A DNA stretch of 64,000 bases, taken from assembly GCA_011364905.1 (NCBI GenBank), contig RDNZ01000001.1, forward strand, positions 54,025 to 118,024, in the 5' to 3' direction. The notes under the pieces were generated by a model. It made no database searches. It was not told where the DNA came from and saw nothing but the letters and a program-made list of their open reading frames with translations. Source of the stretch: Candidatus Thorarchaeota archaeon. Lineage in GTDB: Archaea > Asgardarchaeota > Thorarchaeia > Thorarchaeales > Thorarchaeaceae. Below are positions 14,426 to 60,846 of this stretch, piece after piece. Every line of letters begins with the position of its first letter. The stretch's first letter is position 1. A program made the position numbers and the translations under genes.

Positions 14426-16669
14426 TTATTCTCTCTTTCGAATTACAATGACACCGACTATTACAATAACGGCTGCAATACTTCCTGCAACGATTATCGG
14501 TGTCAGAATATACGGAGGTGTATTTGTGGTAGTGCTAGTTGGTGTTGATGAAGCCGCACTAAGATGTGTCAAAACTCCTCCTTCTGCTCTATTCATCCCC
14601 CAATCCCAAGCAACCACCCATATAGTAAGATTTGAGGTGTGCTCCAAGAAGGGAACTGACACTGACCAATTATATCCGTTATAAGCCATTGGAAAGCTAC
14701 GAACAACACCATCATCTACCTGAACATAGAGTGTGACATTCTCCAATCCTGCAAGATTTTCGCTAATCATCGCCCAGTAGGTGAAAGGGCCAGTCCAAAA
14801 GTCGCTTGGATTAGTACCTCGACCATATATCGACGGAGGTATGTCATCAATTGACGAAAACATCATTCTTCGAGTCCAATCTCGAGCTTTTACCAAAGCA
14901 CTGTATGCTGAATGCCAGTCCATTTCATTGTAGGAATTTCTTGCAGATTCAAATGAAGCAAGAGCAGCAGATTCCGCGGCATAGGTTACGCCTCTCTCAT
15001 CGGATCGAAGATTGGATTGCTCCTCAAGAAAGTTTGACCATAGAAGAGCTTCCATCTGGTCCAAATAGGTCCCCTGAACCCAGTTCTTCTCAAAAGTGGA
15101 GGTACCGTTGTGTTCAGCAAAGTATCCCATAGGTCCGTAATAGAAGTCACTTGAATAGTGCTCATGTTGCCAAGAGTGCGCAAATCCGATTGCATGCATG
15201 GTCTCATGAAGTTGAGTGGCTGATATTCCATCCTTGGGAGTCACACCATCCGGGCGATAATAACGTTCCCAAGATTTCCAGATGACTGTCTGTCCTCCTC
15301 CACCCAGTCCGGTGTACGCTCTTCCATAGACATGCATTTCCATTTGCTTCTTTATGAAGACAACTCCAAACACATTGATGTTGTCGTCATTAACCACATA
15401 TGCGGGTCTCATTCCACTGTAGATAGCATTAAACATGGACCCACCATCAACAATTGTTGTTCCATCTAAGTTATCTGCGGCGTATGTCCAGAACAGGCTG
15501 TTCCAAGAAGGTTCTTCATCGATGTCTAGATATTGGACATCAACCTCCCATTGAATGAAGGGATAGAGTTCCTCAAGATGCGCCTTTTGCATCTCAGCGT
15601 TGGTCACCCATTCGAGGCTATTGACAGAGGTCCCATCAGCTACATCCATGCAAAACACCAGCACCTTCAGTCTACCAACATCAACATACTTTGCAGGCTG
15701 ATGCTGATATGGGAAAAGTAGTTGGCTGATAGGGTCCCAGATGCACTCTCTCAAGTAAACATTGAGTGCATCTACATCTGCAGGTATGTCTAAGTTGAGA
15801 GATCCCACTTTGTCCTCTAAATCTTGAGTCCAGAAATCGTAAGACGTATTGATTTCTTCGCTCCACCAAACCTTGCACCATTTCAAGTACCACTGATGAG
15901 CACTAGGGTCCACTACATACAGATTATAGCGTCCACCGAAGAACGGATAGTCCATCGTGACATTCGGATTCAGAGCGTTGTCCCACTCCAATCTAAACCA
16001 GTCTTGATTCTGTCCCGTATCAGGATCAAGGGGGTGGTAGTTGTACCAATGTTCCAGACTGTGATCCGCGCTGTCAAACTCCGAGAAATTAACAAGATAA
16101 AGAGTGTACCCAAGATCAGGCGGACTCGTGTATGGATTCTCTTCTAGCCAATCCTCCACTGCATAGCCATCAATGGCACGACCTGCTCGAGGATAGAATA
16201 TTCGTTGTGGTTCGTCGAGGTTGTCCTTCTGATATAGTAGTGCGCTCTCATCAAGGCCTGTCCCTGTTTCGCTTCCATTTATGGAATTGTCAAGCATGAC
16301 TTGGCGAAGTTCGTCGTTGTATGCAGCATCTGCATAGACGATTTGATACTCGATATTATAGGTGATTTGAGCTGCTTCTGTAGAAAAGTTCCTGATTGTT
16401 GGTAAATCCTGTAATAGTAACGGTTCATCAATTAGAGAAGGATCATAACCCACTACGATGATATTAGCTGTCCAGTTTCTCTCAATTGGTTGAGGCCCCT
16501 GACTAAGAGTAGCTTGCTTTACTGGCTGTCTGTGATTATCTTGCACACCAAAAGGAGTGGCAATCACAAGCACTAAAGCAATACCTAGGACAAGAGCACG
16601 ACGCATAGTGTTCCCTGCCTTCTTCACCATATTAACAAACTGGTTCATGTAACCGCAACCAAACCACAT
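14426..16669 (-). CDS. Secreted metzincin-type zinc metalloprotease with a Ser/Thr-rich stalk and C-terminal TM anchor. The true start may be 16630 (MVKKAG...) or 16606 (MRRALV...).
   Basis: HETMHAIGFAH fits the HExxHxxGxxH metzincin zinc-binding motif. The N-terminal hydrophobic stretch ALVLGIALVLVIATPFG is a signal peptide. A stalk SAASSTPTSTTTNTPPY is followed by the TM helix IIVAGSIAAVIVIVGVIVI plus RKRE at the extreme C-terminus. Confidence 0.7.
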   Translation of the reverse strand: MWFGCGYMNQFVNMVKKAGNTMRRALVLGIALVLVIATPFGVQDNHRQPVKQATLSQGPQPIERNWTANIIVVGYDPSLIDEPLLLQDLPTIRNFSTEAAQITYNIEYQIVYADAAYNDELRQVMLDNSINGSETGTGLDESALLYQKDNLDEPQRIFYPRAGRAIDGYAVEDWLEENPYTSPPDLGYTLYLVNFSEFDSADHSLEHWYNYHPLDPDTGQNQDWFRLEWDNALNPNVTMDYPFFGGRYNLYVVDPSAHQWYLKWCKVWWSEEINTSYDFWTQDLEDKVGSLNLDIPADVDALNVYLRECIWDPISQLLFPYQHQPAKYVDVGRLKVLVFCMDVADGTSVNSLEWVTNAEMQKAHLEELYPFIQWEVDVQYLDIDEEPSWNSLFWTYAADNLDGTTIVDGGSMFNAIYSGMRPAYVVNDDNINVFGVVFIKKQMEMHVYGRAYTGLGGGGQTVIWKSWERYYRPDGVTPKDGISATQLHETMHAIGFAHSWQHEHYSSDFYYGPMGYFAEHNGTSTFEKNWVQGTYLDQMEALLWSNFLEEQSNLRSDERGVTYAAESAALASFESARNSYNEMDWHSAYSALVKARDWTRRMMFSSIDDIPPSIYGRGTNPSDFWTGPFTYWAMISENLAGLENVTLYVQVDDGVVRSFPMAYNGYNWSVSVPFLEHTSNLTIWVVAWDWGMNRAEGGVLTHLSAASSTPTSTTTNTPPYILTPIIVAGSIAAVIVIVGVIVIRKRE

Positions 16670-19035: not shown

Positions 19036-20181
19036 TCATAAGTAGGCTTTCTCAACTTGGTTGTAGAGATAGTGCTTCATGCTATTTGATGCCACTACAG
19101 GTAGGTGTTCGTGTACGCTATCCAACGAGGCTACTTCCTGCGTTTTTAGTGAAAATCCCAACTTTTCGAAACTACCCTTGACCTGCTCTATAGCGTTTCC
19201 GAAATGTCTTATGCCTATCCCTAATGCTTCTAGGATTTTGTAGCCATAGTGCGTGAGCCAGAGAGAGTTCATTAGCGACGTGCTACCCTTTGTAGGGACA
19301 ATTGCATTTTCGATCTCTCTTTTCCGCGCTTCTGCAATTCGTGCAATTAGCCTTGATGCCCTAGTGTTCCTCATCAACTCTGTATCGAGGAAAAGAGTTG
19401 GTCCTCCATGCTCAATCTGTGCATCAAGTAGATCTATCGCTTTGTCAAAAATGGCTCGCTTTGCGGTTCTGTAGTCCATTGACTCCGTTGTGCTTTCAAG
19501 GAGGTTTTTTGGATTGCCATCAAATCCAGCCAATTCTTCCATACCAAAACCCAACATGAGACCTCTTTGAATGGCATACCAATCATTGTTCGATACCTGA
19601 CTCAAGACGGAGAGAATCCTCTGACGGAGGGGTGCCCAATCCATTTTATTTGCGAGGGCATCACAGGATTTCCACATCAGAACTGGTTGCGCAGTCCATG
19701 GAGCTCCATCAGGCCTGACAAGTAAGAGACGCTCTGCCAGTTGGCTTGTTGTGAAGAGGAATCTCAAGATGCTGTCAGAGTAGATCACAACAGATGAGTC
19801 GAGCAATATGTGCGAACGAACAAGTATCGGAGTTATATCCAACTCCTTGAGCCTGTTCTGCGTGAGGTTAAGTCTCTTCAATGCATCACAATCTCCCAGT
19901 GGCCAGAGATTCAGTGACTCTAAATGGTTGTTCTCGACACGCAAATCTATCAGTGTCTTTTGATTCCGTAGTGGCGTTAAATCAAGTTCCTCAAGCATGT
20001 TATTAGATAGGTTGAGGGTCATTAGTTGGCTGCATTCTCTAAGATTCGAGAGATCAACTTTTATGGCCGCTCTCGTCGTCAAATCTACAATCTTGTCATC
20101 TTGCCTATACTTGGTTTCTTCTTGACGTCCGTGTGGACTCCAGTACTTTATTGCGACCTCTTCCATGCAGAACTCAACCAT
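19036..20181 (-). CDS. Cytoplasmic leucine-rich-repeat (LRR) protein with an uncharacterised roughly 250-aa C-terminal domain.
   Basis: Four or five tandem LxxLxLxxNxL units (LSNLRECSQLMTLNLSNNMLEELDLTPL; LIDLRVENNHLESLNLWPL; LKRLNLTQNRLKELDITPI). There is no signal peptide or TM helix. Confidence 0.65.
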   Translation of the reverse strand: MVEFCMEEVAIKYWSPHGRQEETKYRQDDKIVDLTTRAAIKVDLSNLRECSQLMTLNLSNNMLEELDLTPLRNQKTLIDLRVENNHLESLNLWPLGDCDALKRLNLTQNRLKELDITPILVRSHILLDSSVVIYSDSILRFLFTTSQLAERLLLVRPDGAPWTAQPVLMWKSCDALANKMDWAPLRQRILSVLSQVSNNDWYAIQRGLMLGFGMEELAGFDGNPKNLLESTTESMDYRTAKRAIFDKAIDLLDAQIEHGGPTLFLDTELMRNTRASRLIARIAEARKREIENAIVPTKGSTSLMNSLWLTHYGYKILEALGIGIRHFGNAIEQVKGSFEKLGFSLKTQEVASLDSVHEHLPVVASNSMKHYLYNQVEKAYL

Positions 20182-20227: not shown

Positions 20228-23200
20228 TTACTCTTCTGGTGGTAAGGGCGAAGGTAGCTTTGTTTCAGCAGCTATCAGAAAGTCTCCGTCAACTGCTTCA
20301 AGCACCATTTGATGCGCTCTTCTTTCAGTGTATCCAAGAACGCTCGTTGCCTTGATAATTGCGTCAACGGAAACTCCATGGTGAATGTCCATACTATCGA
20401 GCGCAGAAGATACTGGACTAAGATCTTTGGGGAGGTTCCTCTTTACTCCAACGTATCTCTTCATCAACCGCCCATCGAAGTAACTTACGAAGATTGAATC
20501 AAAAGTGTCAGAGAGTGTTGGAGATCGGACCATCTGACGGATTGCATCATCCTGGTGGTCATAAAGTCCGCCGACCTCTCTACTGAATGTTTCAAGTTGT
20601 ACCTTTTGTCTACTAGAGGCAGGTTCTACAGTGATAATGGCGCAAATGAGTGACTCAGTTTGCACTGCTGTGACCACTTCTGTGATAGGAATTGCTGTCC
20701 ACATGGGCTCATCAATTGAGAATTCTGATCGGAATTGAGAAATTGCTGTTATTAGTGAGCTAAGTATGGATTCTTGAAATGCTCCCTTGAGGATATTTGA
20801 GTACACAGGCAGTCCAATTGCACGATGAATGACAAGCAGACCAATTAGATTCTTTGCATCATCAATGCGTCCCTCAAGAGCCAGAAGTTCGAGGTTACGT
20901 CTTGTCATGGTAGTCATATAGAAACGACGGCTGAATGCTATTGCGACTACGGAAATCACGACAATAAACGCCCCAATGAAACCTGCTCTTAGTGTAACCA
21001 CGTAAAGCGACTCCGTCCCCGGGATTCGAATGGTGACATTTACACTATTGCTTTCAAAATAAGGCATGGCAACTTCAATAACGACCAAATATTCTCCAGA
21101 GCCAAAGCCCGTAGAGTTGAAGTCCGCCTCCCACCAGTTTCTAGCATAGTTAGGACTAAACTGAACAATTCCCGAAGTCCAATTACCAGTTACTTGTGCG
21201 TCGCTAAGGATTGAATTGCCGTTATCTTGGTCATAGAGAGAGATGGCAAGCGTGAATTCATCACCAGATTTGATCTCGCGGATTGGCGTCTGAGCTATAA
21301 CGGTGAATTTGTGCAACAAACTAAATTCCGCTTTACCATATCCCACTTCAGTGCCATTGTGCCAGAAGGCACCGACAATCCATTCTCCAACAGTTGAATT
21401 CACAGGGCCAAAAACATCTCCCTGTGTGACTACCGTTGAGTCATTGAAATTATGCAGAACCTCGCTCGCCCATAGGTCACTAGTGGGGAGATACCAACTC
21501 ACCTCAACATTCGTGGCATTTCCAAGTGAATCGTTAGTTGCACCAAGACTAGCAAGACACCTAATTCTGTCTTCATTGTGAAAGATGGATTCGTCAGCCC
21601 ATGTGAGGTCCGACTTGTTTTGAACTTGAGTTGTTAGTTTGTTTACGTAATTTGGTCCGTGCAGAATTATTGTCCACCAACCTGCGGAATTCGCTAAACC
21701 GGAGGCGATGGTTAGTTTCGAATCCTCTACAGACACACTAGGTGTGACATCCTGGCCGAGAGGATTCAAGACCTGCGGATCATTCCAGTCAGATGGGATA
21801 TGCGCGATTATTCCTTTGTCAGCTGCTTCAGGATATGATTGGATATACGTGTATAGAGAAAACTCTGCGTGCTCACCCATTTCAATGACATATGACACTC
21901 CATCATCTTCCAGGTTCATGGAACTCATTGAGTAACTGAAACGGGTCATAATACTGACTTTTGATGAAAATTCAAAGGAAACTGTCGTGTTCGATGAAAA
22001 GGTGAATGGGATAGATGCTTTCTCCCAGAAGGAATAATTCAACAGAATCTCCCCTTGACTAACTGTTCCATATACAGGTAGTGTGCCTAAAGGTGAACAG
22101 CTTACTGTCAGGTCTACTTGTTGCGGACTCGGAGCATTCAGAGCCGTTAGGGAGATATCATCAACAAGAAATGTAAGGAATTGACCATTAGCTGAATCGC
22201 CATCCAAATCAGCGTCGTTTTCATCAATCTGAATGTACGATGAAGGTGTGTCCACTTTCAAGACAACGCGAATTTCAAATTGCGGCGGAGCTTCAGGAAT
22301 TTCCACTTCTAGCGGGCCAGTGGAAAACCAAACTCCTCTCTGTGTCATATTCGTGGGATCTATTGTCCAGTTCCATAGCATTGATGTTCCATTGAGAATC
22401 TCAAAGCCAAATTCAAAAATGTCAGAGTAGTTCAAACCAATTGGTCCTCGCTGATATAGATAGTCCATTGAGAACTCGAATTCTTCTTCCCCCTGACTAT
22501 TGTTGACCATCTGGTACCAATAAATCCGAGTTCCGTCGTAGTGTCGATATCCAACGCCCACTACTTCATAACCCTCGTTCTCAATGGATAGGTATTTGCT
22601 ACCAGTGTCGACATAGGAGGTTCGCTGTCTTCCAGGTGTGTAGAGAATTTCTCGCTGGGCCAACCATCCATCAGCGTAAAATGCTCCATTCCCGGTCCAA
22701 TCAATATTCGCACCAGGATTTCCAGTTTCAAAGGTCCCGTTCAACGCGTAGAGACAATTGAGGTCTCTAATGTCAACCTCGACCTGTTCTGCACTCCAGG
22801 AGTCGTCCCCTGCACAAACGTCATAGCTGAAGGACACTGCTCCAACTGGAACAAGATCTGCACCTCCTGACGAATCGGACAGAGATCCTTCAAACTTGTA
22901 ATAGTGAGAAAGACCTGGTTCATTCCCAGCTAGAGTTTCCAAGTAATCACTCCTAATATCCTCTAAGGGCCTTTCAACTGTATAGTATCTAAAATCATCC
23001 ACATGGCCATCGACCATTGTATCAGGTCGAGCAGCAGAATTCATCAGGTCATTTTCAGACAGAAAACCTACGACTGATCCGACCCATGAAGTTGTAAAGG
23101 CATCCTCCAAAGGTTGAGTGTCTTCATCACCCCAATAGATTGCAATCTGGTTTGATGTGTCATCCCAGGTGATGGCTAAGAAATACCATCGACCAAGTAC

Positions 23201-23794
23201 CCAGTCATTCTTATTCCCCACGATGGTTGTGTCCCCGCCCCAGTCTAATGTAAGGCGATTGTCAACAGACCAACGAGTTTCAAAGTCATAATCCTGCCCC
23301 CAGAACCGTCCAGTGGCTAGGGAACCATCCCATTTTATCCAAAGAGAAATAGTTCCTTGCGGTGATCCGAAGTCGGTTTGGCCACTAACACCGACTAAGA
23401 AGTAACCTCCTGAACAATCGGCAGAGTACCTGTTACCTTGTGAGCCTACAGGAGAGAATGCTTCAGAGCTTGGTTGAGGTGCCGTGTCAGTACGAGCGAT
23501 AGTGTATGGTTGAATCCCAGCAGCTGAACCGAAATGTTCGATAGGAACAGGGTTGAGTATACCAGTTCTTGGTTCCGGGCTTTCAGAAAGGCCATGATAT
23601 ATTCCCTTGGAAAGTCGTATAGGATCTGAGAAGTTGGTTCTTGAAGTCGTTGTGCTTGGAGCTGCTAACGGTGCCCACCCTAACATGCTACAGAGAAATA
23701 GTATCATGACTAGATGGGTCCTTTTCAACCACTGGCCTCCGATGAGAAGCTGGTAACTAGGCCGGAGTTTATGCCACAAAACGCAACTTCCCAA
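20228..23794 (-). CDS. Receptor-like surface protein: signal peptide, Laminin_G_3/ConA-like lectin domain, beta-sandwich domains, one TM helix, and a roughly 300-aa cytoplasmic domain that may be roadblock/LC7-like. The probable true start is 23707 (MILFLCSMLGWAPLAAPS).
   Basis: The LamG-like block is GTISLWIKWDGS...WYFLAITWDDTSNQIAIYWGDEDTQP...VDDFRYYTVERPLEDI. The TM helix is GFIGAFIVVISVVAIAFS followed by RRFY. The cytoplasmic segment NLIGLLVIHRAIGLPVYSNILKG...LITAISQF is loosely roadblock-like. The ORF is 1188 aa. Confidence 0.75.
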   Translation of the reverse strand: MGSCVLWHKLRPSYQLLIGGQWLKRTHLVMILFLCSMLGWAPLAAPSTTTSRTNFSDPIRLSKGIYHGLSESPEPRTGILNPVPIEHFGSAAGIQPYTIARTDTAPQPSSEAFSPVGSQGNRYSADCSGGYFLVGVSGQTDFGSPQGTISLWIKWDGSLATGRFWGQDYDFETRWSVDNRLTLDWGGDTTIVGNKNDWVLGRWYFLAITWDDTSNQIAIYWGDEDTQPLEDAFTTSWVGSVVGFLSENDLMNSAARPDTMVDGHVDDFRYYTVERPLEDIRSDYLETLAGNEPGLSHYYKFEGSLSDSSGGADLVPVGAVSFSYDVCAGDDSWSAEQVEVDIRDLNCLYALNGTFETGNPGANIDWTGNGAFYADGWLAQREILYTPGRQRTSYVDTGSKYLSIENEGYEVVGVGYRHYDGTRIYWYQMVNNSQGEEEFEFSMDYLYQRGPIGLNYSDIFEFGFEILNGTSMLWNWTIDPTNMTQRGVWFSTGPLEVEIPEAPPQFEIRVVLKVDTPSSYIQIDENDADLDGDSANGQFLTFLVDDISLTALNAPSPQQVDLTVSCSPLGTLPVYGTVSQGEILLNYSFWEKASIPFTFSSNTTVSFEFSSKVSIMTRFSYSMSSMNLEDDGVSYVIEMGEHAEFSLYTYIQSYPEAADKGIIAHIPSDWNDPQVLNPLGQDVTPSVSVEDSKLTIASGLANSAGWWTIILHGPNYVNKLTTQVQNKSDLTWADESIFHNEDRIRCLASLGATNDSLGNATNVEVSWYLPTSDLWASEVLHNFNDSTVVTQGDVFGPVNSTVGEWIVGAFWHNGTEVGYGKAEFSLLHKFTVIAQTPIREIKSGDEFTLAISLYDQDNGNSILSDAQVTGNWTSGIVQFSPNYARNWWEADFNSTGFGSGEYLVVIEVAMPYFESNSVNVTIRIPGTESLYVVTLRAGFIGAFIVVISVVAIAFSRRFYMTTMTRRNLELLALEGRIDDAKNLIGLLVIHRAIGLPVYSNILKGAFQESILSSLITAISQFRSEFSIDEPMWTAIPITEVVTAVQTESLICAIITVEPASSRQKVQLETFSREVGGLYDHQDDAIRQMVRSPTLSDTFDSIFVSYFDGRLMKRYVGVKRNLPKDLSPVSSALDSMDIHHGVSVDAIIKATSVLGYTERRAHQMVLEAVDGDFLIAAETKLPSPLPPEE

Positions 23795-28387: not shown

Positions 28388-29953
28388 TCAAGTCTTTTTC
28401 ACATGGTAACGTACTCTAGTCAGGATTAAAAGAATCATAAATCCCACCCCTATTCCAATTGAACCACCTAATATTATCATAGATGGAATTTGATAGCGTT
28501 CTCTGACTGTAACAAATACTGTGTCTGATTTTATCTTATTATCCCAAGGATTCCAAATGGAGAGAGTATAGTTGTATATACCCGCATCAAGGTCATCAAC
28601 ACTGACTACAATGTGATCTGTGCCATCCCAAGAAGCGCTGAATATGACCTCACTATTACGAAGAATTTTGTAGTAGAAGTTTTCAGGAGTAGTGGCTAGG
28701 AGAAAACCGTGGAACAGTATCTGAACATCAAGGGTCCAGGTAATTGCGTGTCCTTCATTGCCGTATGTATATACAATGTCGGCAGGCGCATCTACATTGA
28801 CATTGTAGACAGGGACGTTATGATGAGGATTAACATGATGAAATGAAGGGGACAGTCCATCTGAGAAATCACCTGGCCAATAGTTAGCTTCGCTATCAAC
28901 TGATCCGAGTCTAGTTTTGAGATCAACACTGAAAGCCCGAATCCGAACCATGCAGTCTCCCAAGAGGAAGCCTGCGGCATTCCAAACATAGAATGTATCA
29001 GTCAGATTTCTTGCTAGGATCTGAAAGGTTGCACCTCCATCCAAGCTGAGCCAAACTGAGAAGAAGTTTGTATCGTTAGCATTCTTATCAGTACACGTCC
29101 ATGTTATATTATAGACCTCGTTTTCTACTTCTGTTGGTTCAGGTACAGTGACATCAGGTGAGAAGAAATTGCCAAGTGTAACATCAGTGTAGTCATAGAT
29201 CAAAGTGTAATTTGACTCTGTTTTTCCTTCTATTCGAACATCAACAGTTTGGTTCCTTCTATCCAACGTGTAGGTGTCATAGATCACGATATTTCCTTCG
29301 ACGCTGATTTGCTTGTAAACGCCTACTTGGAGGTACAGAGTCCAATTTCCGGGTGAAAGATCATAATCCAGACAACCAACATACATCGTATCGTTGTCTG
29401 ACTCCCAACGAAATTCATCAGTTTCAGGCTTAGCACTAGAAGCCATGCTGACAAGATTGTTGGCGTACGTGAGTTGTGAATATTCCTGTTCTCCACTCCA
29501 AGCCATGAAATCAGTATCACCGTTGGTGAAATTTCCGATGATGTTCACCATCCAGCCTCTCTCGATACCTTTTACAATTACCCAGTCAAACTCAGTAGGA
29601 TTTATGACTCCGCTAAATTGACTGTCGGGGTCGGAAGGGACTACAAGTTCTCTACTAGTATTCAATCGGAATCCATTCTCTACGGTCATCGTACAATGAG
29701 TGACGTTCAAAGACTCAGAAAAGGTTGCGTTCAGAACGACATGATCTCCAACCAAGTCAGCATCATCCATCACTGCCAGTCGTGAAGGCTGCCACTTTGA
29801 AGTCCATGTCAGTTCGAATTCATTGTTTGCCAATGAATCAACGATTATGTATTCTGGTCCTAAGATTATGTTAGTTTGAAGCGGAGAAACCATGAGATAA
29901 ATGACGATAGGTAGAAAGAGGCCTGTTTGTTGAAACCAGTTTCTTGCTCTCAT
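28388..29953 (-). CDS. Secreted beta-sandwich protein with an N-glycosylation-sequon-rich ectodomain and a C-terminal TM anchor. Start taken at MRARNW (29953); the ORF extends to 29974.
   Basis: Signal peptide MRARNWFQQTGLFLPIVIYLMVSPLQT. Many NxT/S sequons. The C-terminal TM helix is IILGGSIGIGVGFMILLILT followed by RVRYHVKKT. Confidence 0.6.
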   Translation of the reverse strand: MRARNWFQQTGLFLPIVIYLMVSPLQTNIILGPEYIIVDSLANNEFELTWTSKWQPSRLAVMDDADLVGDHVVLNATFSESLNVTHCTMTVENGFRLNTSRELVVPSDPDSQFSGVINPTEFDWVIVKGIERGWMVNIIGNFTNGDTDFMAWSGEQEYSQLTYANNLVSMASSAKPETDEFRWESDNDTMYVGCLDYDLSPGNWTLYLQVGVYKQISVEGNIVIYDTYTLDRRNQTVDVRIEGKTESNYTLIYDYTDVTLGNFFSPDVTVPEPTEVENEVYNITWTCTDKNANDTNFFSVWLSLDGGATFQILARNLTDTFYVWNAAGFLLGDCMVRIRAFSVDLKTRLGSVDSEANYWPGDFSDGLSPSFHHVNPHHNVPVYNVNVDAPADIVYTYGNEGHAITWTLDVQILFHGFLLATTPENFYYKILRNSEVIFSASWDGTDHIVVSVDDLDAGIYNYTLSIWNPWDNKIKSDTVFVTVRERYQIPSMIILGGSIGIGVGFMILLILTRVRYHVKKT

Positions 29954-30131
29954 ATCACGGGCTCCCCTCAACAACCTCCACTAGTAATAATGAGTAGGTT
30001 CGATATCAATCTAATTCTAGAACATCTAATGAGTCTTGATGAAGCTTTATTCTGGCAACAAAAAGTCAACACTTAAAACTAGGTCTTTTCGGGCTGACAT
30101 CCAATATACACAGTATCTCGAGGAGTACGTT

Positions 30132-38437: not shown

Positions 38438-40330
38438 TTATACTTCTCGTGAGAAAATTGGCTGGAGGGAGATCATCTTTGGCAGGAGTAACCTCTGTTT
38501 AGGCGCAAAGGATGTCTTGTTGTTTATCTCCTTAACAAGCTCTTTTTCACTCATTACGACCTGGTCCTTTAACTCACGCCTTCGAACAGCCAGTTTTCCG
38601 CTTTCCTTCTCTTTCTCACCTACGACACAAATGTACGGAATCCAAAGCTTTTCAGCGGACCTGATTTTCTTACCTAAGGTCTGTTGACGATCGTCTATCT
38701 CATAACGAATACCAGCTTTGTCTAGTGACTTGCCTAATGATACACAGTAGTCGATAAAGCTCTCATTAACTGGTACCAATCGCACTTGCACAGGAGTCAT
38801 CCAAAGTGGAAGATGAGGTACTTTACCGGTCTTCAAATCCTTGTATGCCTGCTCGAGCACTCCGTAGAGAATTCGCTCTATAGAACCCGATGGGGAGGTA
38901 TGAAGGATCAGAGGATGTTGTTCTTTGCCTTCAGCATCAACATAGGTGATATTGAATCGTTCTCCATTCTCAACATCGATTTGTATCGTGCCAAGACAAG
39001 CCGCTTTCTTTTGCTCATCGACAACGTTCCACTCGCCCTTGAAGATAAAATAGGCATACCGTTCATCGAAGAGTTCCAACATGACAGGCTTACCAACTTT
39101 CGCTACGACTCCTTCAACGAACTCTTTGTTTTCGTCGAAGAACGAGCGTAGAATCCTGAAGGAAACTTCGTAGGTTACCTCTAGTTCGTTCATCAACTTA
39201 GTGACGAATACAAGCTGGTTGTTAACAGCGGTTTTTGCCATCTCTACATCTGCAACTATTTCATGGATATCCGGCATTGTGAAGGCACGGGGTCTCCTCA
39301 TGCCAGCCAACTCGCCGCTTTGCTCGCGCCTGTATGATGGAGCTATCTCAAACAGCTTCAGTGGTAGCTGCTTGTAAGTCACCAGAGCCTGAGATATTAA
39401 TAGGAATTGCCCAAAGCAGGCCGAGAATCTGGCAAAATAGTCCTTGTCTCCAGACCGCACTACATACTGTCTTGATGGGAACCTTTGAAGGTATGACTTC
39501 AACGACGGATGTTGATAATCATATATCAGCGGAGTTTGAACAACGTGCGCGCCGTAGTCCACCATCTCCGCAGTGACGCGCTCCTCCACTGCTTTCTTCA
39601 AAGTCAGACCACGCGGAGGCCACCTGAAATTGCCCGCGTCGGAACCCGGTTCATAATCAACCAGCTCTAGCTGACGCATTAGCTCTATATGCGGAGGAGG
39701 TTCCTGGGCAGTTCTATCCTTTGCAGTTTCGTAGTTGACATAGAGCTCTAGTTCTTTGTGTTTGGCATATTTGAACTCCTTCACGGGAGTCATCTTACCA
39801 CTAGGATCCATGATGAAGAACTCAGACGTGGACTTCTCTTCAGCAACAAGAGCCGTTAGGTCCTCTCCTTCAGTGACATCAACATCTGCAGTTTTCGCTA
39901 TCTCCTTGGATATGTCTAGGACTTTCGAGCGTTCTGCAAGAGGGTGGCCTTTGCAATGAAGTCTAAAAGCTTTGTACCAACCGAAGGGAACGCGGACTAC
40001 TTTGAATCCTCTCTCTTTGAGGTCTTTCTCAACGCCCTTGAGCAGTTTCAGAGCAACCGACGGTTTCGATGGGCTTTCAGTCAGGTGAACCCATGGGTAC
40101 ACAATGATGTTTTTCTCTTTGACCTCGTCAGCGGCATTTGCTATCATTTCAGAAGTCGCTTTGATTGCCGCGTTTACATTCTTGGCATCGGTTGTTTCAG
40201 CAGCGATGAAATTGACTAAGCAGGAATCCTCAGTATTATAGGACTTTTCTTTCACTTCTTCTGCGTTCTTGAGCGCTTTTCTCTTGGCTTCATAGGAAAA
40301 GCCATCGCTGTGAATCTGTAGCATCCTCAT
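38438..40330 (-). CDS. thrS: Threonyl-tRNA synthetase, archaeal type, with the N-terminal D-aminoacyl-tRNA-deacylase-like editing domain.
   Basis: The N-terminus MRMLQIHSDGFSYEAKRKALKNAEE...VALKLLKGVEKDLKERGFKVVRVPFGWYKAFRLHCKGHPLAE closely matches archaeal ThrRS editing domains. A class II catalytic core and a C-terminal anticodon-binding domain follow. Length 630 aa. Confidence 0.9.
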   Translation of the reverse strand: MRMLQIHSDGFSYEAKRKALKNAEEVKEKSYNTEDSCLVNFIAAETTDAKNVNAAIKATSEMIANAADEVKEKNIIVYPWVHLTESPSKPSVALKLLKGVEKDLKERGFKVVRVPFGWYKAFRLHCKGHPLAERSKVLDISKEIAKTADVDVTEGEDLTALVAEEKSTSEFFIMDPSGKMTPVKEFKYAKHKELELYVNYETAKDRTAQEPPPHIELMRQLELVDYEPGSDAGNFRWPPRGLTLKKAVEERVTAEMVDYGAHVVQTPLIYDYQHPSLKSYLQRFPSRQYVVRSGDKDYFARFSACFGQFLLISQALVTYKQLPLKLFEIAPSYRREQSGELAGMRRPRAFTMPDIHEIVADVEMAKTAVNNQLVFVTKLMNELEVTYEVSFRILRSFFDENKEFVEGVVAKVGKPVMLELFDERYAYFIFKGEWNVVDEQKKAACLGTIQIDVENGERFNITYVDAEGKEQHPLILHTSPSGSIERILYGVLEQAYKDLKTGKVPHLPLWMTPVQVRLVPVNESFIDYCVSLGKSLDKAGIRYEIDDRQQTLGKKIRSAEKLWIPYICVVGEKEKESGKLAVRRRELKDQVVMSEKELVKEINNKTSFAPKQRLLLPKMISLQPIFSREV

Positions 40331-47632: not shown

Positions 47633-47732
47633 TCAGCAATCAATGACTAGTCCACAAGTACATCATTCAGTTGGTTTTCTTTCAGATCAGTTGCAGAAAT
47701 GTTAATCTTTTGGAGTTCTGACTGGTCAACTA

Positions 47733-50114
47733 ATGGCGATTGAAAAGCATCGTTCAGCTTGCGCGTTGAACTGCCCCGACATTTGTGCTTATGTAGTCCA
47801 TGTTGAGGATGGCAAGATTGTAAGACTGGATGGAGACCCCGAGCATCCATATACACTTGGACGATGCTGCCCAAAGGGCTACGCACACGTTCTCAGAATG
47901 TATTATGATGACAGGTTGCTTTATCCTCAAAAGAAGCAGCCTGACGGGTCATTCAAGCGTATATCTTGGTACGAAGCCTTAGATGAGATCGCACATAAGA
48001 TGAAGACCGCCAGAGATGACTTTGGACCACAGAGTGTGGGGATATATTCAGGGTCAGGTAATGATGGAATGGCTCCCCGATACGCAGCGAGGTTCGCCAA
48101 TGCATTTGGCTGCAGATTGATACCAGGCATAGTCGAGATTTGTTTTGAGGGAGCATATGAAGGCGCGCGATTCAATGTAGGTCCATTCCCTCCACATGAG
48201 CTATCAGATTGGGCTAACTCAAAATGCATTGTGATATGGGGAACCAACAAATTCGAATCGAGTATCCACTGCAAACGAATCATCCAAGAAGCCATCGATA
48301 GTGGTGCGAAATTAATTGTCATTGATCCAAGAAGGACACCCTATGCAAAGGTTGCAGATGTTTATACAACTATAAGACCTGGAACTGATGGTGCTTTGGC
48401 TTTGGGGATAGCTAATGAAATAATTAGGAGAGACCTCTACGACCATGAGTTCGTTAAAAGACATGTTCATGGTTTTGAGGAATTCCGAAGCCGCGTATCC
48501 GAATATGATACCAGACAGGTGAGTAAAATCACCTGGGTTGAGGAGAGTACAATTCGGGAGATAGCTAGGATATTTGCTACACATGGACCAGCCCTCATCA
48601 CAACTGCTCCTGCAGGCATGAATCATTACACTAATGGTACCTGGGCTGCAAGAGCAGTTCATAGTCTCTTGGCAGTCTGCGGATATCTTGGAGTTTCAGG
48701 AGGAGGATTTCAATATCTTTCGTCAGATAACAGTCCCTTTAACGGCGCTGCAGTTGCCTTGCCTGAGCTTCTGGATTCTTCGGTGAAACCTGTCGTTCCA
48801 TCAGGCACATATGTACCAGATTACGTTTTGCGACAGGAGGAAAGCCCGCTTAAGGTGTTTGTAATTCAAGCCGCGAGTCCGATGACGCAGTGGCCTAACA
48901 CAAACAAGACAAAGAAGGCATTAGATAAGATACCATTCAAAGTGTGCATTGATCTCGAGATGACTGATACTGCTAGGCTCTGTGACATTGTTCTTCCAGC
49001 GACATTCATTTTCGAGCATCACAACCTTGTACATTCCGAGTTGCATAGAATTGTACAATATGCACCAAAGCTTGTTGAGCCATTGGGGGAAGCAAAGAGC
49101 GAATTGGATATTTGGAGGGGTATCGCTGAGCGAATTGGTATTGGAGATCACTTCCAGCTGAGTGAATTGAATGCGATAAGACTAGCCCTTCAGAGTGAGG
49201 ATTGTCGAGATATAACATTAGAGAAACTAATCGAAAAGCCAGAAGGGATAAGGACACGAAGTGAGGCCATTCCTTTTTCGGATGGAAAATTCGGAACGCG
49301 AACTGGATGGATTCATCTATATTCCTCTGAACTTGAAGAACAAGGATTGGACCCCTTGCCTTTTCATCAGGAACCACTGGAAAGTCCAATCTCAACTCCT
49401 TGGCTAGTTGAGGAGTATCCACTTATGATGATAACCGGCAGGTTGAGGGAGCGACTTCACTCACAGTATACTACTGTTGAGATTGGCGGCACTGTAAAGA
49501 GCTATGCTCACTGTACGACATGCAAGAAATGTGTTGAAGGATGCCCCGATGAAGCTATCACTTTGACTGAACCCAGCGTTGATACAATCCAACGGAACGC
49601 AGAGTCTGCACCGCAAGAACCTGCAAGACTCAGAAAGAAGCTTGGCGAATTGGTGGGAGAATTAGCTGTACGTGTTTCTGACGAGCAGCTCCATATTCCG
49701 AAGGAAATCACAGGTCTTCTTGTTCCTGTGTGGGACTCCGAAAAATGTATTGGTTGCAGAGAGTGTGCCCTCGATATTTGTCCGTACGAGGTAGTGACAG
49801 AGCCAATAAGAATACTAACAAGAGAGGATGTTGGTGTACACAGAGCCTTCCTGCGCATGCACCCTGAAACAGCAGATACCTTGGGTCTTAGAGAAGGAGA
49901 TCGTGTTGATGTTGAGTCCAAGCGTGGGACTGTGAAGAGCATGAAACTCGTTTTGACTCCAGATATTGATCCGAGAGTGGTTTGGTCATCAGACGGGTGG
50001 TGGCAGGATGATGGCAATATTAACCTCTTGACCGATGACATGCATACGGCTTTTGGACATACTCCGGGATTCAACTCAGTCCTTGTCAATGTTAAGAAAG
50101 CGCTCCACCAATAA
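47733..50114 (+). CDS. Molybdopterin (MopB-family) oxidoreductase catalytic subunit. It has an N-terminal 4Fe-4S domain and an unusual internal 2x[4Fe-4S] ferredoxin-like insertion ahead of the C-terminal molybdopterin-binding barrel.
   Basis: The N-terminal Cys cluster is CALNCPDICAY...RCCPKG. The insertion clusters are CTTCKKCVEGCP and CIGCRECALDICP (about residues 590-660). The C-terminal barrel is VDVESKRGTVKSMKLVLTPDIDPRVVW. Length 793 aa. Confidence 0.8.
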   Translation: MAIEKHRSACALNCPDICAYVVHVEDGKIVRLDGDPEHPYTLGRCCPKGYAHVLRMYYDDRLLYPQKKQPDGSFKRISWYEALDEIAHKMKTARDDFGPQSVGIYSGSGNDGMAPRYAARFANAFGCRLIPGIVEICFEGAYEGARFNVGPFPPHELSDWANSKCIVIWGTNKFESSIHCKRIIQEAIDSGAKLIVIDPRRTPYAKVADVYTTIRPGTDGALALGIANEIIRRDLYDHEFVKRHVHGFEEFRSRVSEYDTRQVSKITWVEESTIREIARIFATHGPALITTAPAGMNHYTNGTWAARAVHSLLAVCGYLGVSGGGFQYLSSDNSPFNGAAVALPELLDSSVKPVVPSGTYVPDYVLRQEESPLKVFVIQAASPMTQWPNTNKTKKALDKIPFKVCIDLEMTDTARLCDIVLPATFIFEHHNLVHSELHRIVQYAPKLVEPLGEAKSELDIWRGIAERIGIGDHFQLSELNAIRLALQSEDCRDITLEKLIEKPEGIRTRSEAIPFSDGKFGTRTGWIHLYSSELEEQGLDPLPFHQEPLESPISTPWLVEEYPLMMITGRLRERLHSQYTTVEIGGTVKSYAHCTTCKKCVEGCPDEAITLTEPSVDTIQRNAESAPQEPARLRKKLGELVGELAVRVSDEQLHIPKEITGLLVPVWDSEKCIGCRECALDICPYEVVTEPIRILTREDVGVHRAFLRMHPETADTLGLREGDRVDVESKRGTVKSMKLVLTPDIDPRVVWSSDGWWQDDGNINLLTDDMHTAFGHTPGFNSVLVNVKKALHQ

Positions 50115-56095: not shown

Positions 56096-57154
56096 CTACC
56101 TTCGCTTTACGACGAAGGCGATGCCAATAACGACGACAGCTCCACCAATGGCAACGGGCAGAAGATTGTCAGCTAGGAATGTAGGAAGTTGGAATCCTCC
56201 AGTAAGAAGAAGGTTCTCAAAACCAATCTTGGGATCATGGATGATTTCGTTGCCCTGTGGATAGTTCAAGTAAATGTCCTGTTCAGTAGCTGATATCTCA
56301 TGAATGCTGGAGTTAACTTGATGAGATACACCGTCAATCATAGCTGTGTCTTTCCAAGAGAAGAATCCATTCACATCAGTCACAGAAACGTCGACTGCAG
56401 ACTCACCAACCGCTCGACCATCCTCTTCATCTTCTGTTACGCCATCATAGGAGGCTTCCGATTCTGAACTGAATTCGACTTTCAAAGCCAGCTGAGATGC
56501 GCTCTCAGTGAAGTTGAAACCACGAATCGCGACATCAATCTTCACTTGAGTAGGTGCGATTAATGATCCGTTGATATCAGTGAATGCTCCGGCTGCGTAG
56601 ATCTTGGCTTCAAACACACCATCAGTTGTCACTACATCGAAAACGTGAACTGGTCCATCAGCTGTGTTCTCCACCGTGTAGGCGATAGGATTGAAGCTGT
56701 TGAGCAGCAAGGTTTGGACTCCTGTATCAACATTGTCATCGTAGACACCATTGCCGTTCACATCGAGATATTCAATGAGCTCTTTGAAATTCACCTCGAA
56801 CTCGCGTCCGGTTTCATTGACGCCAGTTTCTGTTTCGAAGCCCACTTTGAATTGAACGCCATCGGATCCTACAACGACTTCGATCTTGAAGGAATCTTCA
56901 GTGCCTCCGGATTCGAGTTGGGACTCTATCTCCGCGGAGAATGCCATGACATTGACATTGACCTCTCGATTGTTGGAATCATCCCCACTGCCATCATCAC
57001 CTGCAGTGTGGGTGTTATCATCAGTAGTTGTGTTGTCATCCACCTGAGTGTTTTCATCTTCTGTGGTGGTCTGAGCTTTGACCCTCACAGCTGTTGTTAG
57101 CACTAAAATGAGCAACATCACAAGGATAGCTTTGTTGCGAGTAGGGTGTTTCAT
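56096..57154 (-). CDS. Secreted acidic (D/E/T/N-rich) cell-surface protein with a C-terminal TM anchor.
   Basis: Signal peptide MKHPTRNKAILVMLLILVLTTAVRVKA. Low-complexity DDNTTTDDNTHTAGDDGSGDD. C-terminal helix LLPVAIGGAVVVIGIAFVV followed by KRR. TATA-like TTATATAC about 32 nt upstream. Confidence 0.6.
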   Translation of the reverse strand: MKHPTRNKAILVMLLILVLTTAVRVKAQTTTEDENTQVDDNTTTDDNTHTAGDDGSGDDSNNREVNVNVMAFSAEIESQLESGGTEDSFKIEVVVGSDGVQFKVGFETETGVNETGREFEVNFKELIEYLDVNGNGVYDDNVDTGVQTLLLNSFNPIAYTVENTADGPVHVFDVVTTDGVFEAKIYAAGAFTDINGSLIAPTQVKIDVAIRGFNFTESASQLALKVEFSSESEASYDGVTEDEEDGRAVGESAVDVSVTDVNGFFSWKDTAMIDGVSHQVNSSIHEISATEQDIYLNYPQGNEIIHDPKIGFENLLLTGGFQLPTFLADNLLPVAIGGAVVVIGIAFVVKRR

Positions 57155-58605: not shown

Positions 58606-60846
58606 TCAGTTGCTTTTAGAAAGCAATCTAATGGTGAACAGACGCCCCTCACAGACGTCCGTGCGTGCGTAAGTTTCCTTACTGAATTGTCCATTCAACG
58701 ATTCAGTCATCAATTCTGCAGCAAGCAGGCCTAGTGTTCCGCTACTGTAGCCATCCTGTTCATCTGCCCTTCGACCAGGAGCTTTGATGTCGATTTCCCA
58801 GTAACTCTGACCAGAGTATTCAGCTTCATGAATAGCTATCCTAACGGTTTCGCCCCTCTTTCTGCACTCCAGTGCACTATAGAGAATGTTAAGAAAGATA
58901 TGCACAAGGAGATCATTTGCCATCACATAAGCATCGTATTCCTCTGATTGGAATTCCACAATGAGCTCGCCAGAGCCTATTCGCCTAGTGAAGATATCTA
59001 GCGCGCTCACTATTGTATCCACTAGGTTTGTTGGTTGCAGTTCGCTGAGTTTCAGATTATCAGCTTCACTAAGAAGTCGTACATTACTAATTAATTGCTC
59101 AGAGAATGAGATGACCTGACGTCCGTCTTCAGCAAGACGTTTCCGCTTTTCATTTGTCAAATCATTGGACCCAAGGAGTTCCAAAGACATCATCATCATC
59201 TGATTGTAATTTGACACATCGTGCATGAGGAGGTCTGCATACATGTTAGCGCGTCTGTGCGAATCCTCAACCTGATGCATGGATCTGACATATAGCCAAA
59301 TCAATAGAGGCGGCCCAGCAAGAAGCCCGACAAATAGGAGCACCTCTGAGATCCACCATCCGGGTGTCCATGCAACATAATACCCTTTGAGGGTGTTCGG
59401 GAGAATCCACATGTTCAAGAAGAATAGCACATACAGCTCCACCGGCGGTTTGCCTTTCGACCCTTCAGCAAGCATGAAGATGATGTATGCAAAAGCGAAC
59501 ATGATGAACAAGTTTGACCCAACTATTACTATGCTGCTCAATGGGCTCGTGCCTATTGAGGGCCATATCCCTATGGCAACTTGATTCACTATTTCTCCGA
59601 GTTCAATTGCTCCAACAAGACCAAGAATAACGAGAAGCAGCTGGATTGCTGAAGGAACCTTTTCTAGCTTGATTGGAGGTGTCCTTGTCCACCGGATAGT
59701 CAAGTAAAGAAGACCAATTGTGAGCAGACTTCCGACTGTGATTGGAGTGACGGGTTCTCCTTGCAAGGATTCGGAAAGGAGAAAACGGACCACAAGTGCT
59801 ATTGCCACACCAGCCCACATGCCGAATAGAAGTATCAATGGATAATGATTCCAGTTTTCCTTTCTCTTCGGATAGACATAGAGAAGAATTGCCATCATTA
59901 TTGATAATGATGCAGCGCCAAGGTGAATGATGGAGTACGCCAGAAGATTCTCAAGCGGAGGGGGAGAAGTGAGAGACATCTTTTCGATTGTGATGGTCAA
60001 AAGAAACGGGAGGTATGCAATCAGAATTAAGCCTATGACAATACCATAAGCGAATTTCCGGTTGTAACCTTGCTGGCGCAAGAAGGGTACACCCATAGCC
60101 AATGCTAGAAGCACATATGCAGCCATTTGCAATGTTTCTGGATATTCCCAGTTTGCTGTGGGATCGGGAAGAGTTGATAGGAGCAAAGCTGCAGCGATGG
60201 AGAACAACAAGACAGAACTGATAAGATAGCCGGAGTCAAGTTGAAAACCATACTTCTTGATTTTGGGGATCATGAGTGCTATCAACAAAAAGCAGACGAC
60301 GCTAATGCTGCAAAGTACCCAGCTCATGTCATTCAATAGCGTTGGAGTTATGAAATCCACAACGAGTAACGAAATCAAACCATAGACAATCAATGGTAGT
60401 AAGACGATTATGATTATGATTAGGCGGTTTGGAATTGCTTGCCTCCTTTGAGGGTCATCTTTAATGATGAATACGCAAGCAGCCATTAGAAGAACTGCCA
60501 GCATGGACAACTCCAAGAGGTCGGTGATCAATAGCGATGGTTCTCGCTGAACAGTTTCACCCGGTTCAAGGAGTAAATGCCTCAGTGCGCTGCCTATATG
60601 AACAATCATTGGAAAAAGCAACGCTGTCATCAGGAGCATGTTTGGTCGATTCAGTTTCTCTTGATAGGCAAGTACGCTTAACGCTGCAGGTATCGCAATC
60701 CAGAATGCAATCATAGCATGGACACCAATTCTTGTGGCAGGTGTGTACGAAACGAAATTGCCCGGCCCAATAACAAACGCGGCAGCTAAAGTCGCGAGAG
60801 GGACTAAGACTATGACTTTGACCAATGCTCGTCTTAATCCTCTCAC
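58606..60846 (-). CDS. Large sensor histidine kinase with a roughly 16 TM helix N-terminal membrane domain. No response regulator nearby.
   Basis: About 520 aa of hydrophobic helices, then the H-box LLMHDVSNYNQMM and a C-terminal HATPase-like region with a degenerate G-box region (the ORF ends ...GRLFTIRLLSKSN). Confidence 0.7.
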   Translation of the reverse strand: MRGLRRALVKVIVLVPLATLAAAFVIGPGNFVSYTPATRIGVHAMIAFWIAIPAALSVLAYQEKLNRPNMLLMTALLFPMIVHIGSALRHLLLEPGETVQREPSLLITDLLELSMLAVLLMAACVFIIKDDPQRRQAIPNRLIIIIIVLLPLIVYGLISLLVVDFITPTLLNDMSWVLCSISVVCFLLIALMIPKIKKYGFQLDSGYLISSVLLFSIAAALLLSTLPDPTANWEYPETLQMAAYVLLALAMGVPFLRQQGYNRKFAYGIVIGLILIAYLPFLLTITIEKMSLTSPPPLENLLAYSIIHLGAASLSIMMAILLYVYPKRKENWNHYPLILLFGMWAGVAIALVVRFLLSESLQGEPVTPITVGSLLTIGLLYLTIRWTRTPPIKLEKVPSAIQLLLVILGLVGAIELGEIVNQVAIGIWPSIGTSPLSSIVIVGSNLFIMFAFAYIIFMLAEGSKGKPPVELYVLFFLNMWILPNTLKGYYVAWTPGWWISEVLLFVGLLAGPPLLIWLYVRSMHQVEDSHRRANMYADLLMHDVSNYNQMMMMSLELLGSNDLTNEKRKRLAEDGRQVISFSEQLISNVRLLSEADNLKLSELQPTNLVDTIVSALDIFTRRIGSGELIVEFQSEEYDAYVMANDLLVHIFLNILYSALECRKRGETVRIAIHEAEYSGQSYWEIDIKAPGRRADEQDGYSSGTLGLLAAELMTESLNGQFSKETYARTDVCEGRLFTIRLLSKSN

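Follow-up and report, generated by a model that had tools for sequence, protein, structure and literature searches.

Within the MopB/dimethyl sulfoxide (DMSO)-reductase superfamily, a catalytic alpha subunit feeding a separate iron-sulfur (Fe-S) beta subunit is treated as the rule, and the known exceptions are end-to-end fusions. A different arrangement marks a gene residing in a stretch of 64,000 nucleotides (hereafter, the window) from a Candidatus Thorarchaeota archaeon (assembly GCA_011364905.1, contig RDNZ01000001.1, positions 54,025 to 118,024 of the forward strand). The gene, at 47733..50114 (+), codes for a MopB protein of 793 aa, in which a putative two-cluster ferredoxin domain is inserted in the C-terminal barrel. 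Both parts, the MopB enzyme and the ferredoxin module with its two cluster motifs, are familiar; the arrangement is not, and consists of insertion in domain IV, loss of partners, and residence in one Asgard lineage.

The closest described systems differ in the way electrons are handled. In the three-subunit polysulfide and thiosulfate reductases (Psr/Phs), such as T. thermophilus PsrABC (2vpw), the cysteine ligand of the metal aligns with that of the window protein, but a separate four-cluster Fer4_11 beta subunit and a NrfD quinol-binding anchor adjoin the alpha gene. The same holds for an uncharacterised, insert-free cluster of relatives, called P0122. The window protein has neither partner, and would carry two clusters internally. 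In contrast to PsrA and PhsA, it carries no twin-arginine (Tat) signal, and is accompanied by no beta or NrfD gene in the window and in eight additional loci. Cytoplasmic formate dehydrogenases (FdhF/FdhH, F420-dependent FdhA, HDCR FdhF) resemble the window protein in the four-domain fold, the cellular location and the aligned ligand, but deliver electrons to separate HycB/FdhB-type proteins, and lack an insert in domain IV.

Acetylene hydratase of Pelobacter acetylenicus (2e7z) is the best match among the sequences of solved structures (E 9e-65, 222 bits), and the second-best fold. Both proteins are cytoplasmic, have no known partner subunits, and share the aligned Cys ligand as well as an N-terminal [4Fe-4S] cluster (FS0) motif with a following Lys. 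In acetylene hydratase, however, domain IV runs without interruption and FS0 is the only cluster, whereas the window protein has eight extra invariant cysteines; FS0 is spaced Cx2Cx3C in the former and Cx3Cx3C in the latter, and identity in the structural alignment is about 24%.

Departures from the standard layout are found elsewhere in the superfamily. In the structure of formylmethanofuran dehydrogenase (Fwd), domain IV is a separate polypeptide, FwdD, which shows that the boundary of this domain is evolutionarily plastic. FwdB is a weak match of the window protein, and the ferredoxin motifs of FwdF and FwdG rank among those most similar to the insert. Yet Fwd features a split and not an insertion, its clusters reside on separate subunits, and the residues for CO2 reduction are missing in the window protein. 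Extra Fe-S clusters on the MopB polypeptide are also found in ActB of alternative complex III, in FdsA-type N-terminal extensions (PMC10100899, in its available part), and in two uncharacterised relatives discussed below, P0154 and P0169. In all these end-to-end fusions a whole Fer4_11 or NuoG/hydrogenase-like module is terminal and the barrel contiguous, whereas in the window protein a putative two-cluster domain splits the barrel. The available part of the survey by Wells et al. 2023 (PMC10100899) mentions terminal fusions (FdsA, ActB) and makes no mention of an internal ferredoxin insert; no description of such an insert in a MopB enzyme was found in the searchable literature.

Position and composition of the insert

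The open reading frame (ORF) starts with ATG, ends with TAA, and spans 793 codons with zero internal stops. Its assignment as a Mo/W-bis-pyranopterin guanine dinucleotide (bisPGD) oxidoreductase is based on the translation, Pfam, AlphaFold2 and Foldseek. Domain I (47745..47903, +) matches Molybdop_Fe4S4 (PF04879; residues 5–57, 43.5 bits, cut-off 22.7 bits) and features the putative FS0 motif C10-x3-C14-x3-C18, followed by C46 and by Lys48, the latter within C-P-K-G. The molybdopterin-binding domains II/III (47913..49133, +) match PF00384 throughout its length (residues 61–467; profile positions 1–353 of 353, 165 bits). The codon of Cys137, the predicted Mo/W ligand by alignment to the ligands of solved enzymes, is at 48141..48143 (+). 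FS0 domain, domains II/III, barrel, and Cys metal ligand are all present, and by sequence the window protein is a member of the MopB/DMSO-reductase superfamily; a Mo or W bisPGD cofactor is predicted from this membership.

The insert measures 122 aa (aa 582–703; 49476..49841, +) and is absent from all insert-free relatives. It features two motifs for [4Fe-4S] clusters, separated by a linker of 66 aa. Motif 1, CTTCKKCVEGCP (aa 594–605; 49512..49547, +), is a canonical Cx2Cx2Cx3CP made by C594, C597, C600 and C604, and gives generic matches to FwdF, RnfB, PsaC and NuoI motifs. Motif 2, CIGCRECALDICP (aa 672–684; 49746..49784, +), is made by C672, C675, C678 and C683, and is spaced Cx2Cx2Cx4CP. 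The cysteines of both motifs are conserved in all 114 homologs aligned. Residues 593–686 are matched by the Pfam profiles Fer4_9 (the best, 28.3 bits), Fer4_7, and further Fer4 profiles. The same lines of evidence, Pfam, the two motifs and the eight cysteines in 114/114 homologs, confirm at the level of sequence what had been proposed in an earlier note on this DNA, namely a MopB enzyme with an internal two-cluster ferredoxin domain. The note had described both motifs as canonical, which is correct for motif 1, and not for motif 2.

The same note had located the insert before the C-terminal barrel, a placement that is wrong. The barrel is domain IV, the only MopB domain built from one contiguous stretch of the chain, which acts as a lid closing over the cofactor during maturation (PMC4159696). 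In the intact protein the Molydop_binding match (PF01568, residues 702–783, 71.4 bits) begins only at profile position 26 and ends at position 109; it falls in the rest of the barrel downstream of the insert (aa 704–793; 49842..50111, +). When residues 582–703 are removed in silico, a contiguous match to profile positions 1–109 is obtained, as in the insert-free P0122. The score is the same with the insert removed (70.0 vs 71.4 bits), and what the deletion restores is therefore coverage. Upstream of the insert, the segment YPLMMITGRLRERLHSQ (aa 562–578) corresponds in alignments to strand 1 of domain IV in acetylene hydratase and HDCR FdhF. The start of the match at position 26, the segment upstream, and the contiguity gained on excision together indicate that the ferredoxin module interrupts domain IV, after its first strand. 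The first strand and the cofactor loop, EYPLMMITGRLRERLHSQYTT, immediately 5' of the insert (49413..49475, +), were assigned by the same alignments and by the Molydop_binding coverage after excision, and are the most conserved stretch of the protein.

Conservation, distribution and origin

Homologs were searched among 5.8 billion proteins. More than 110 full-length cluster representatives were found, all about 790 aa long and 66–92% identical to the window protein; the named ones are nearly all from Thorarchaeota metagenome-assembled genomes (MAGs). These labels, the 92% identity to a JGI metagenome contig, and the archaea-specific editing domain of a threonyl-tRNA synthetase encoded in the window mark the DNA as thorarchaeal (Asgard). 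None of the 114 homologs aligned lacks Cys137, C46, K48 or any of the eight cysteines of the insert, and C10, C14 and C18 occur in all those with an intact N-terminus. The insert varies in length from 119 to 123 aa in 113/114 homologs. The x4 spacing of motif 2 is common to the 24 sequences of the displayed alignment (24/24) and to the consensus of the 114. Mean pairwise identity is 54% in the insert vs 74% elsewhere in the protein, the linker being the most variable part. Since the insert diverges faster than the rest and yet its cysteines are never lost, their absolute conservation is specific. As a sequence feature, the eight-Cys pattern, found in 114/114 homologs and in 45 species-level genomes, is far beyond chance. 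Comparison with a 92%-identical ortholog on a JGI contig shows strong purifying selection on the insert, whose dN/dS is 0.116 (linker alone, 0.092); the corresponding values are 0.138 in the remaining part of the barrel and 0.068 over the whole gene.

The full-length AlphaFold2 model, built with the 114-sequence alignment, has a pLDDT of 87 and a pTM of 0.87; in the insert, pLDDT ranges from 81 to 93 per 10-residue block. Segments of low confidence are the Cys137 loop (134–144) and short stretches at 172–174, 293–295, 571–577 and 773–775, which we infer to be cofactor-contacting loops, as fits a model built without cofactors. Foldseek searches with the full-length model gave generic MopB matches, with FdhH at the top, acetylene hydratase second, and NapA also among the top ones. 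FdhH, acetylene hydratase, NapA and DMSO reductase all score at E about 1e-43. TM for the top matches is ~0.70 when normalised to the query, a value consistent with ~120 residues lacking a counterpart.

The insert architecture is rare. An exhaustive HMMER search of 1.84 billion proteins, each standing for one cluster at 50% identity, retrieved one full-length protein with the insert (P0104) and two fragments. The next match is P0122 (699 aa, 38% identical), which aligns in two stretches that skip the insert. Among the 150 nearest representatives, this family is the only one with an internal Fe-S insert, which supports the view of the earlier note that the architecture is unusual. No known fused architecture corresponding to the insert was found among the sequences of solved structures and the 150 nearest clusters. 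Ferredoxin motifs occur in just two others of these 150, both end-to-end fusions with an intact barrel: P0154 (877 aa) has a four-cluster Fer4_11 module at the C-terminus, P0169 (983 aa) one at the N-terminus. The two (35–37% identity) are independent solutions placing the relay on the catalytic chain.

One genome each from 185,579 species was also scanned with the insert alignment. Positive genomes were 45, with 47–73% identity, and are labelled Thorarchaeota (mostly), Hermodarchaeota, Promethearchaeota, or are unnamed archaeal MAGs. N-terminal part, insert and C-terminal barrel are contiguous and in frame in every Asgard locus where the contig allows. Matches in Treponema and Spirochaetaceae were discarded as RnfB polyferredoxins caught via a CTSCKKC motif, and are not homologs.

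In a bootstrapped distance tree of 84 sequences the family of the window protein is monophyletic (100/100 bootstraps), and its sister is the small insert-free P0122 cluster (83/100). The two share the Cx3Cx3C spacing of FS0, while other relatives feature Cx2Cx3C. The best PDB match of P0122 is PsrA, but this protein is equidistant from PsrA, acetylene hydratase and FdhF (233, 227 and 226 bits, respectively). Among solved structures, the window protein is closest in sequence to acetylene hydratase (222 bits); cytoplasmic formate dehydrogenases, F420-dependent or not, come next (171–154), and then PsrA (154). Placement among MopB clades, as the earlier note had suggested, has yielded a monophyletic family with the P0122 cluster as its sister; assignment to any of the NCBIfam families is unsupported.

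The donor of the insert was looked for in two ways. BLASTP against the beta subunit of the sister operon gave no specific similarity, and phmmer and profile searches of the PDB gave motif-level matches only (MbhN/NuoI, PsaC, PFOR, FwdF/G, RnfB). In HMMER alignments with the NuoI/MbhN-type proteins 6cfw_N, 8e9g_I and 6u8y_N, motif 2 of the insert aligns with their motif 1, and motif 1 with their motif 2. A circular permutation of the insert from this type was considered, and set aside because the evidence, at motif level only, is too weak. We propose that the insert design arose once, in the Asgard lineage labelled Thorarchaeota, from a Psr- or acetylene hydratase-like ancestor with a Cys ligand. 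The simplest history starts from a Psr-like alpha-beta-gamma system, from which, in the Thorarchaeota line, beta and gamma would have been lost and alpha would have acquired the internal two-cluster domain, in either order.

Solitary gene, active site and alternative readings

The MopB gene is solitary in nine loci, the window and eight others from different genomes, and no redox-partner gene recurs in them. No Fe-S, membrane-anchor or ferredoxin genes were found across the 64-kb window. By contrast, in the sister cluster both P0122 and P0272 have downstream genes for a four-cluster Fer4_11 beta protein and a NrfD-family membrane protein. The absence of an adjacent beta or gamma subunit gene is upheld in the window, and the idea of a self-contained enzyme gains from the nine independent loci, set against the alpha / Fer4_11 beta / NrfD operons of the nearest insert-free relatives. 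As the FS0 motif starts at residue 10, the sequence ahead of it is too short for a Tat or Sec signal. The window protein is predicted to be soluble, and cytoplasmic as the earlier note had it. The P0122 and P0272 alpha subunits (L003 82-3693; L004 7001-10947) also have no twin-arginine signal in their N-termini; since they are nonetheless encoded with beta and NrfD proteins, their operons suggest a cytoplasm-facing Psr-like complex.

We consider it moderately likely that the window protein is a soluble cytoplasmic single-polypeptide Mo/W-bisPGD oxidoreductase, with the insert as a built-in electron relay. Cys137 would ligate Mo or W, and FS0 (C10, C14, C18 and C46, with Lys48) would exchange electrons with the pterin, its role in the rest of the family. 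The insert in the barrel may bind two more [4Fe-4S] clusters; if they are ligated as in clostridial-type ferredoxins, one would probably be held by C594/C597/C600 with C683, and the other by C672/C675/C678 with C604. The insert probably replaces the separate electron-carrying subunits of related enzymes, and would do the job of the four-cluster beta subunit, along with the NrfD anchor, of the nearest relatives. In the literature consulted, no statement at the level of domains was found on which parts of an alpha subunit touch beta. The chain would then run through the metal, the pterin, FS0, the two insert clusters, and the protein surface, where electrons may pass to or from a soluble carrier, with no need of partner subunits. 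Ferredoxin, to which the earlier note would wire the enzyme directly, is one candidate carrier. As a guess, a small anionic or neutral oxo- or sulfur compound could be reduced as a sink for ferredoxin electrons.

Several points weigh against this reading. Acetylene hydratase, the closest solved relative, is a non-redox enzyme. The Fer4_9 match is barely over the cut-off (28.3 vs 27 bits), because 66 residues lie between the two motifs, and the last spacing of motif 2, x4, is non-canonical. When modelled alone, from 26 sequences, the insert gave a poor structure (pLDDT 58.5, pTM 0.39), either as its fold may depend on packing against the core or as the alignment is shallower; Foldseek with this poor model returned zero matches at E <= 0.001, a search that is meaningless. 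The ferredoxin fold is hence backed only by sequence motifs and by the confidence of the full-length model. About 6–10 kb were inspected around each MopB gene, and partner genes could be elsewhere in the genome. Lastly, binding of the clusters and a path from FS0 through the insert to the surface are things that we infer, and the same goes for the partner in electron exchange, for Mo or W as the metal, and for the kind of substrate.

The active site was compared with five solved enzymes. Cys137, invariant in 114/114 homologs, aligns with Cys141 of acetylene hydratase, with the Sec or Cys that binds the metal in three formate dehydrogenases, and with Cys173 of PsrA, and is therefore the predicted ligand, which the earlier note wanted checked by alignment. 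The surrounding residues differ. Asp13 of acetylene hydratase is not conserved, and aligns with Ala11 (HMMER), or with Pro15 when the cysteines are kept in register. In the substrate ring of the same enzyme, I113 is replaced by G109, W179 falls in a gap, W293 is replaced by T291, and W472 by L437; the only ring positions still hydrophobic are I14 (L12) and I142 (F138). The Sec/Cys-His dyad of formate dehydrogenases is missing, since Cys137-Phe138 faces X-H or C-H in 9t1s_L, 7bkb_D and 7qv7_S, and their catalytic Arg (Arg333 of E. coli FdhH, in PLRGQNN) is replaced by Ser330, within a family-invariant YLSSDNS. His145 of PsrA (T. thermophilus numbering) falls in a one-residue gap, and Arg332 is replaced by Ala294. 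As the catalytic residues of acetylene hydratase, formate dehydrogenase and Psr are missing, the protein falls, on sequence grounds, outside these three functional families, and the existing labels are unsupported. The substrate is not readable from the sequence, as the earlier note had stated; what the comparison excludes are active sites of the formate, acetylene-hydratase and Psr types.

Automatic annotation and best-BLAST assignments would make the protein an already known enzyme, be it a formate dehydrogenase, an acetylene hydratase or a reductase of thiosulfate/polysulfide, which is accordingly very improbable. The JGI name is 'anaerobic selenocysteine-containing dehydrogenase', and thiosulfate reductase in Thorarchaeota is cited by reviews. 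Asgard MAGs contain seven 'AH family' homologs in the count that Wells et al. 2023 made by best BLASTX (PMC10100899, in its available part). The best NCBIfam matches are Fdh-alpha, NasC and PhsA; all these scores, however, are far below the curated cut-offs (287 vs 666, 221 vs 1100, and 219 vs 694 bits, respectively). Furthermore, the His and Arg of formate dehydrogenases are changed to Phe138 and Ser330 in three independent alignments, the His and Arg of PsrA and the Asp and Trp ring of acetylene hydratase are missing as detailed above, and Tat signal, PsrB and PsrC are absent. Quite improbable is also a hydration as that carried out by acetylene hydratase, or another non-redox reaction, in which the insert clusters would be structural, or serve as a redox or oxygen sensor gating the domain IV lid. 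Acetylene hydratase is indeed the best PDB sequence match (222 bits vs 171 for the next), and domain IV shuts over the cofactor as a lid (PMC4159696), with the insert inside it. Yet Asp13 and all three ring Trp are not conserved, acetylene hydratase itself needs no extra clusters, a cluster pair ~10-12 Å apart is the standard relay unit of redox enzymes, and the sister clade, with its beta and NrfD subunits, forms a classical redox complex.

Hdr/Mvh-like, NuoF-like and hydrogenase modules are common in Asgard genomes, and the insert might be an interface plugging the catalytic subunit into one such complex encoded elsewhere, as FdhF does on HycB. FdhF-type enzymes are known to be encoded apart from some of their partners, as also in the structure paper on the formate hydrogenlyase, and just 6–10 kb on either side of the gene were examined per locus. 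The insert is modelled with confidence in the core context only, which makes it an integral surface feature that could equally be a docking site. Such a docking role is nevertheless somewhat unlikely, as the recurrent genes in the nine loci code for a permease, a DinB_2 protein, a peptidase and a large acetyltransferase-domain protein, and not for a redox partner, and two extra clusters already suffice to reach the surface. One more reading, unlikely too, is a new functional MopB family with a chemistry outside the known ones, where the insert may be more than a substitute of beta. The active site has its own invariant polar set (N110-D111, H298-Y299-N301, S330-S331-D332). A second electron route near the pterins, or a coupling between lid and redox state, is conceivable because only a few residues separate the anchor point of the insert from the RLHSQ loop, which contacts the cofactor. 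If true, this would be a mode of wiring or regulation not previously described for the superfamily.

Should the reading of the insert as a built-in relay hold, a membrane-anchored three-subunit system would have been turned into a single soluble protein. The family would show that a relay module can be spliced into a normally continuous MopB domain, an instructive exception to the modular rule of the superfamily. The family is widespread in Thorarchaeota, abundant Asgard archaea of sediments. Labels as formate dehydrogenase-like, 'AH family', and possibly 'thiosulfate reductase' feed metabolic reconstructions of these organisms, and the residue comparisons indicate that they are unsupported. 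A compact partner-free Mo/W enzyme with three clusters, if true, would also be handy for electrochemistry and substrate discovery.

Neighbouring genes

In the window the MopB gene lies 3' of a same-strand S9 peptidase gene, from which it is separated by 100 nt (47633..47732, +), and is convergent with a DUF998 gene. Direct reading of the intergenic region revealed an A/T-rich element, TTAATCTTTT, ~30 nt 5' of the ATG, which is possibly an archaeal promoter of the MopB gene itself. Genes for Mo/W cofactor synthesis or tungstate transport were not found across the 64 kb.

A recurrent neighbour in other loci, within a few kb downstream and on the strand opposite to the MopB gene, is a CitMHS/ArsB/DASS-like anion permease, which is absent from the window. 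Copies, all on the minus strand, are found at L068 8435-9718, L007 8369-9646 and 10311-11579, L008 10601-11881, L002 10548-11894, and L009 11803-13083; in L068 and L007 the permease directly adjoins the MopB gene. The protein scores far under all curated NCBIfam cut-offs (MamN 94, DASS 67, ArsB 51 bits), and could be a lead to substrate uptake or mere lineage synteny. A DinB_2-family gene is convergent with the MopB gene, within a few bases of its stop, in L001 (10417-10914, -), L002 (7706-8173, -) and L009 (8369-8902, -). A protein of ~1,100 aa with an Acetyltransf_1 domain recurs upstream in L002, L007, L008 and L009, and peptidase M29 downstream in L001, L002, L006, L007 and L008. DinB_2, peptidase M29 and PEPCK neighbours look like lineage synteny, and no operon partner emerged. 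In the complete Thorarchaeota genome CP070658 (L006 2306-4336, +), B12-binding and MtmB-like (monomethylamine methyltransferase family) genes lie ~2 kb upstream of the MopB gene.

Other ORFs of the window, all on the minus strand, may be noted. A giant one of 2,564 aa (6493-14187) has no Pfam match at E <= 1e-5. Pfam matches are missing also in ORFs at 14426-16669 (747 aa), 28388-29974 (528 aa), 58606-60846 (746 aa), 19036-20181 (381 aa) and 56096-57154 (352 aa), and an ORF of 1,188 aa (20228-23794) has Laminin_G_3 as its sole domain; these six may be lineage-specific Asgard proteins. The region 38438-40330 (-) codes for a threonyl-tRNA synthetase with the archaea-specific editing domain.

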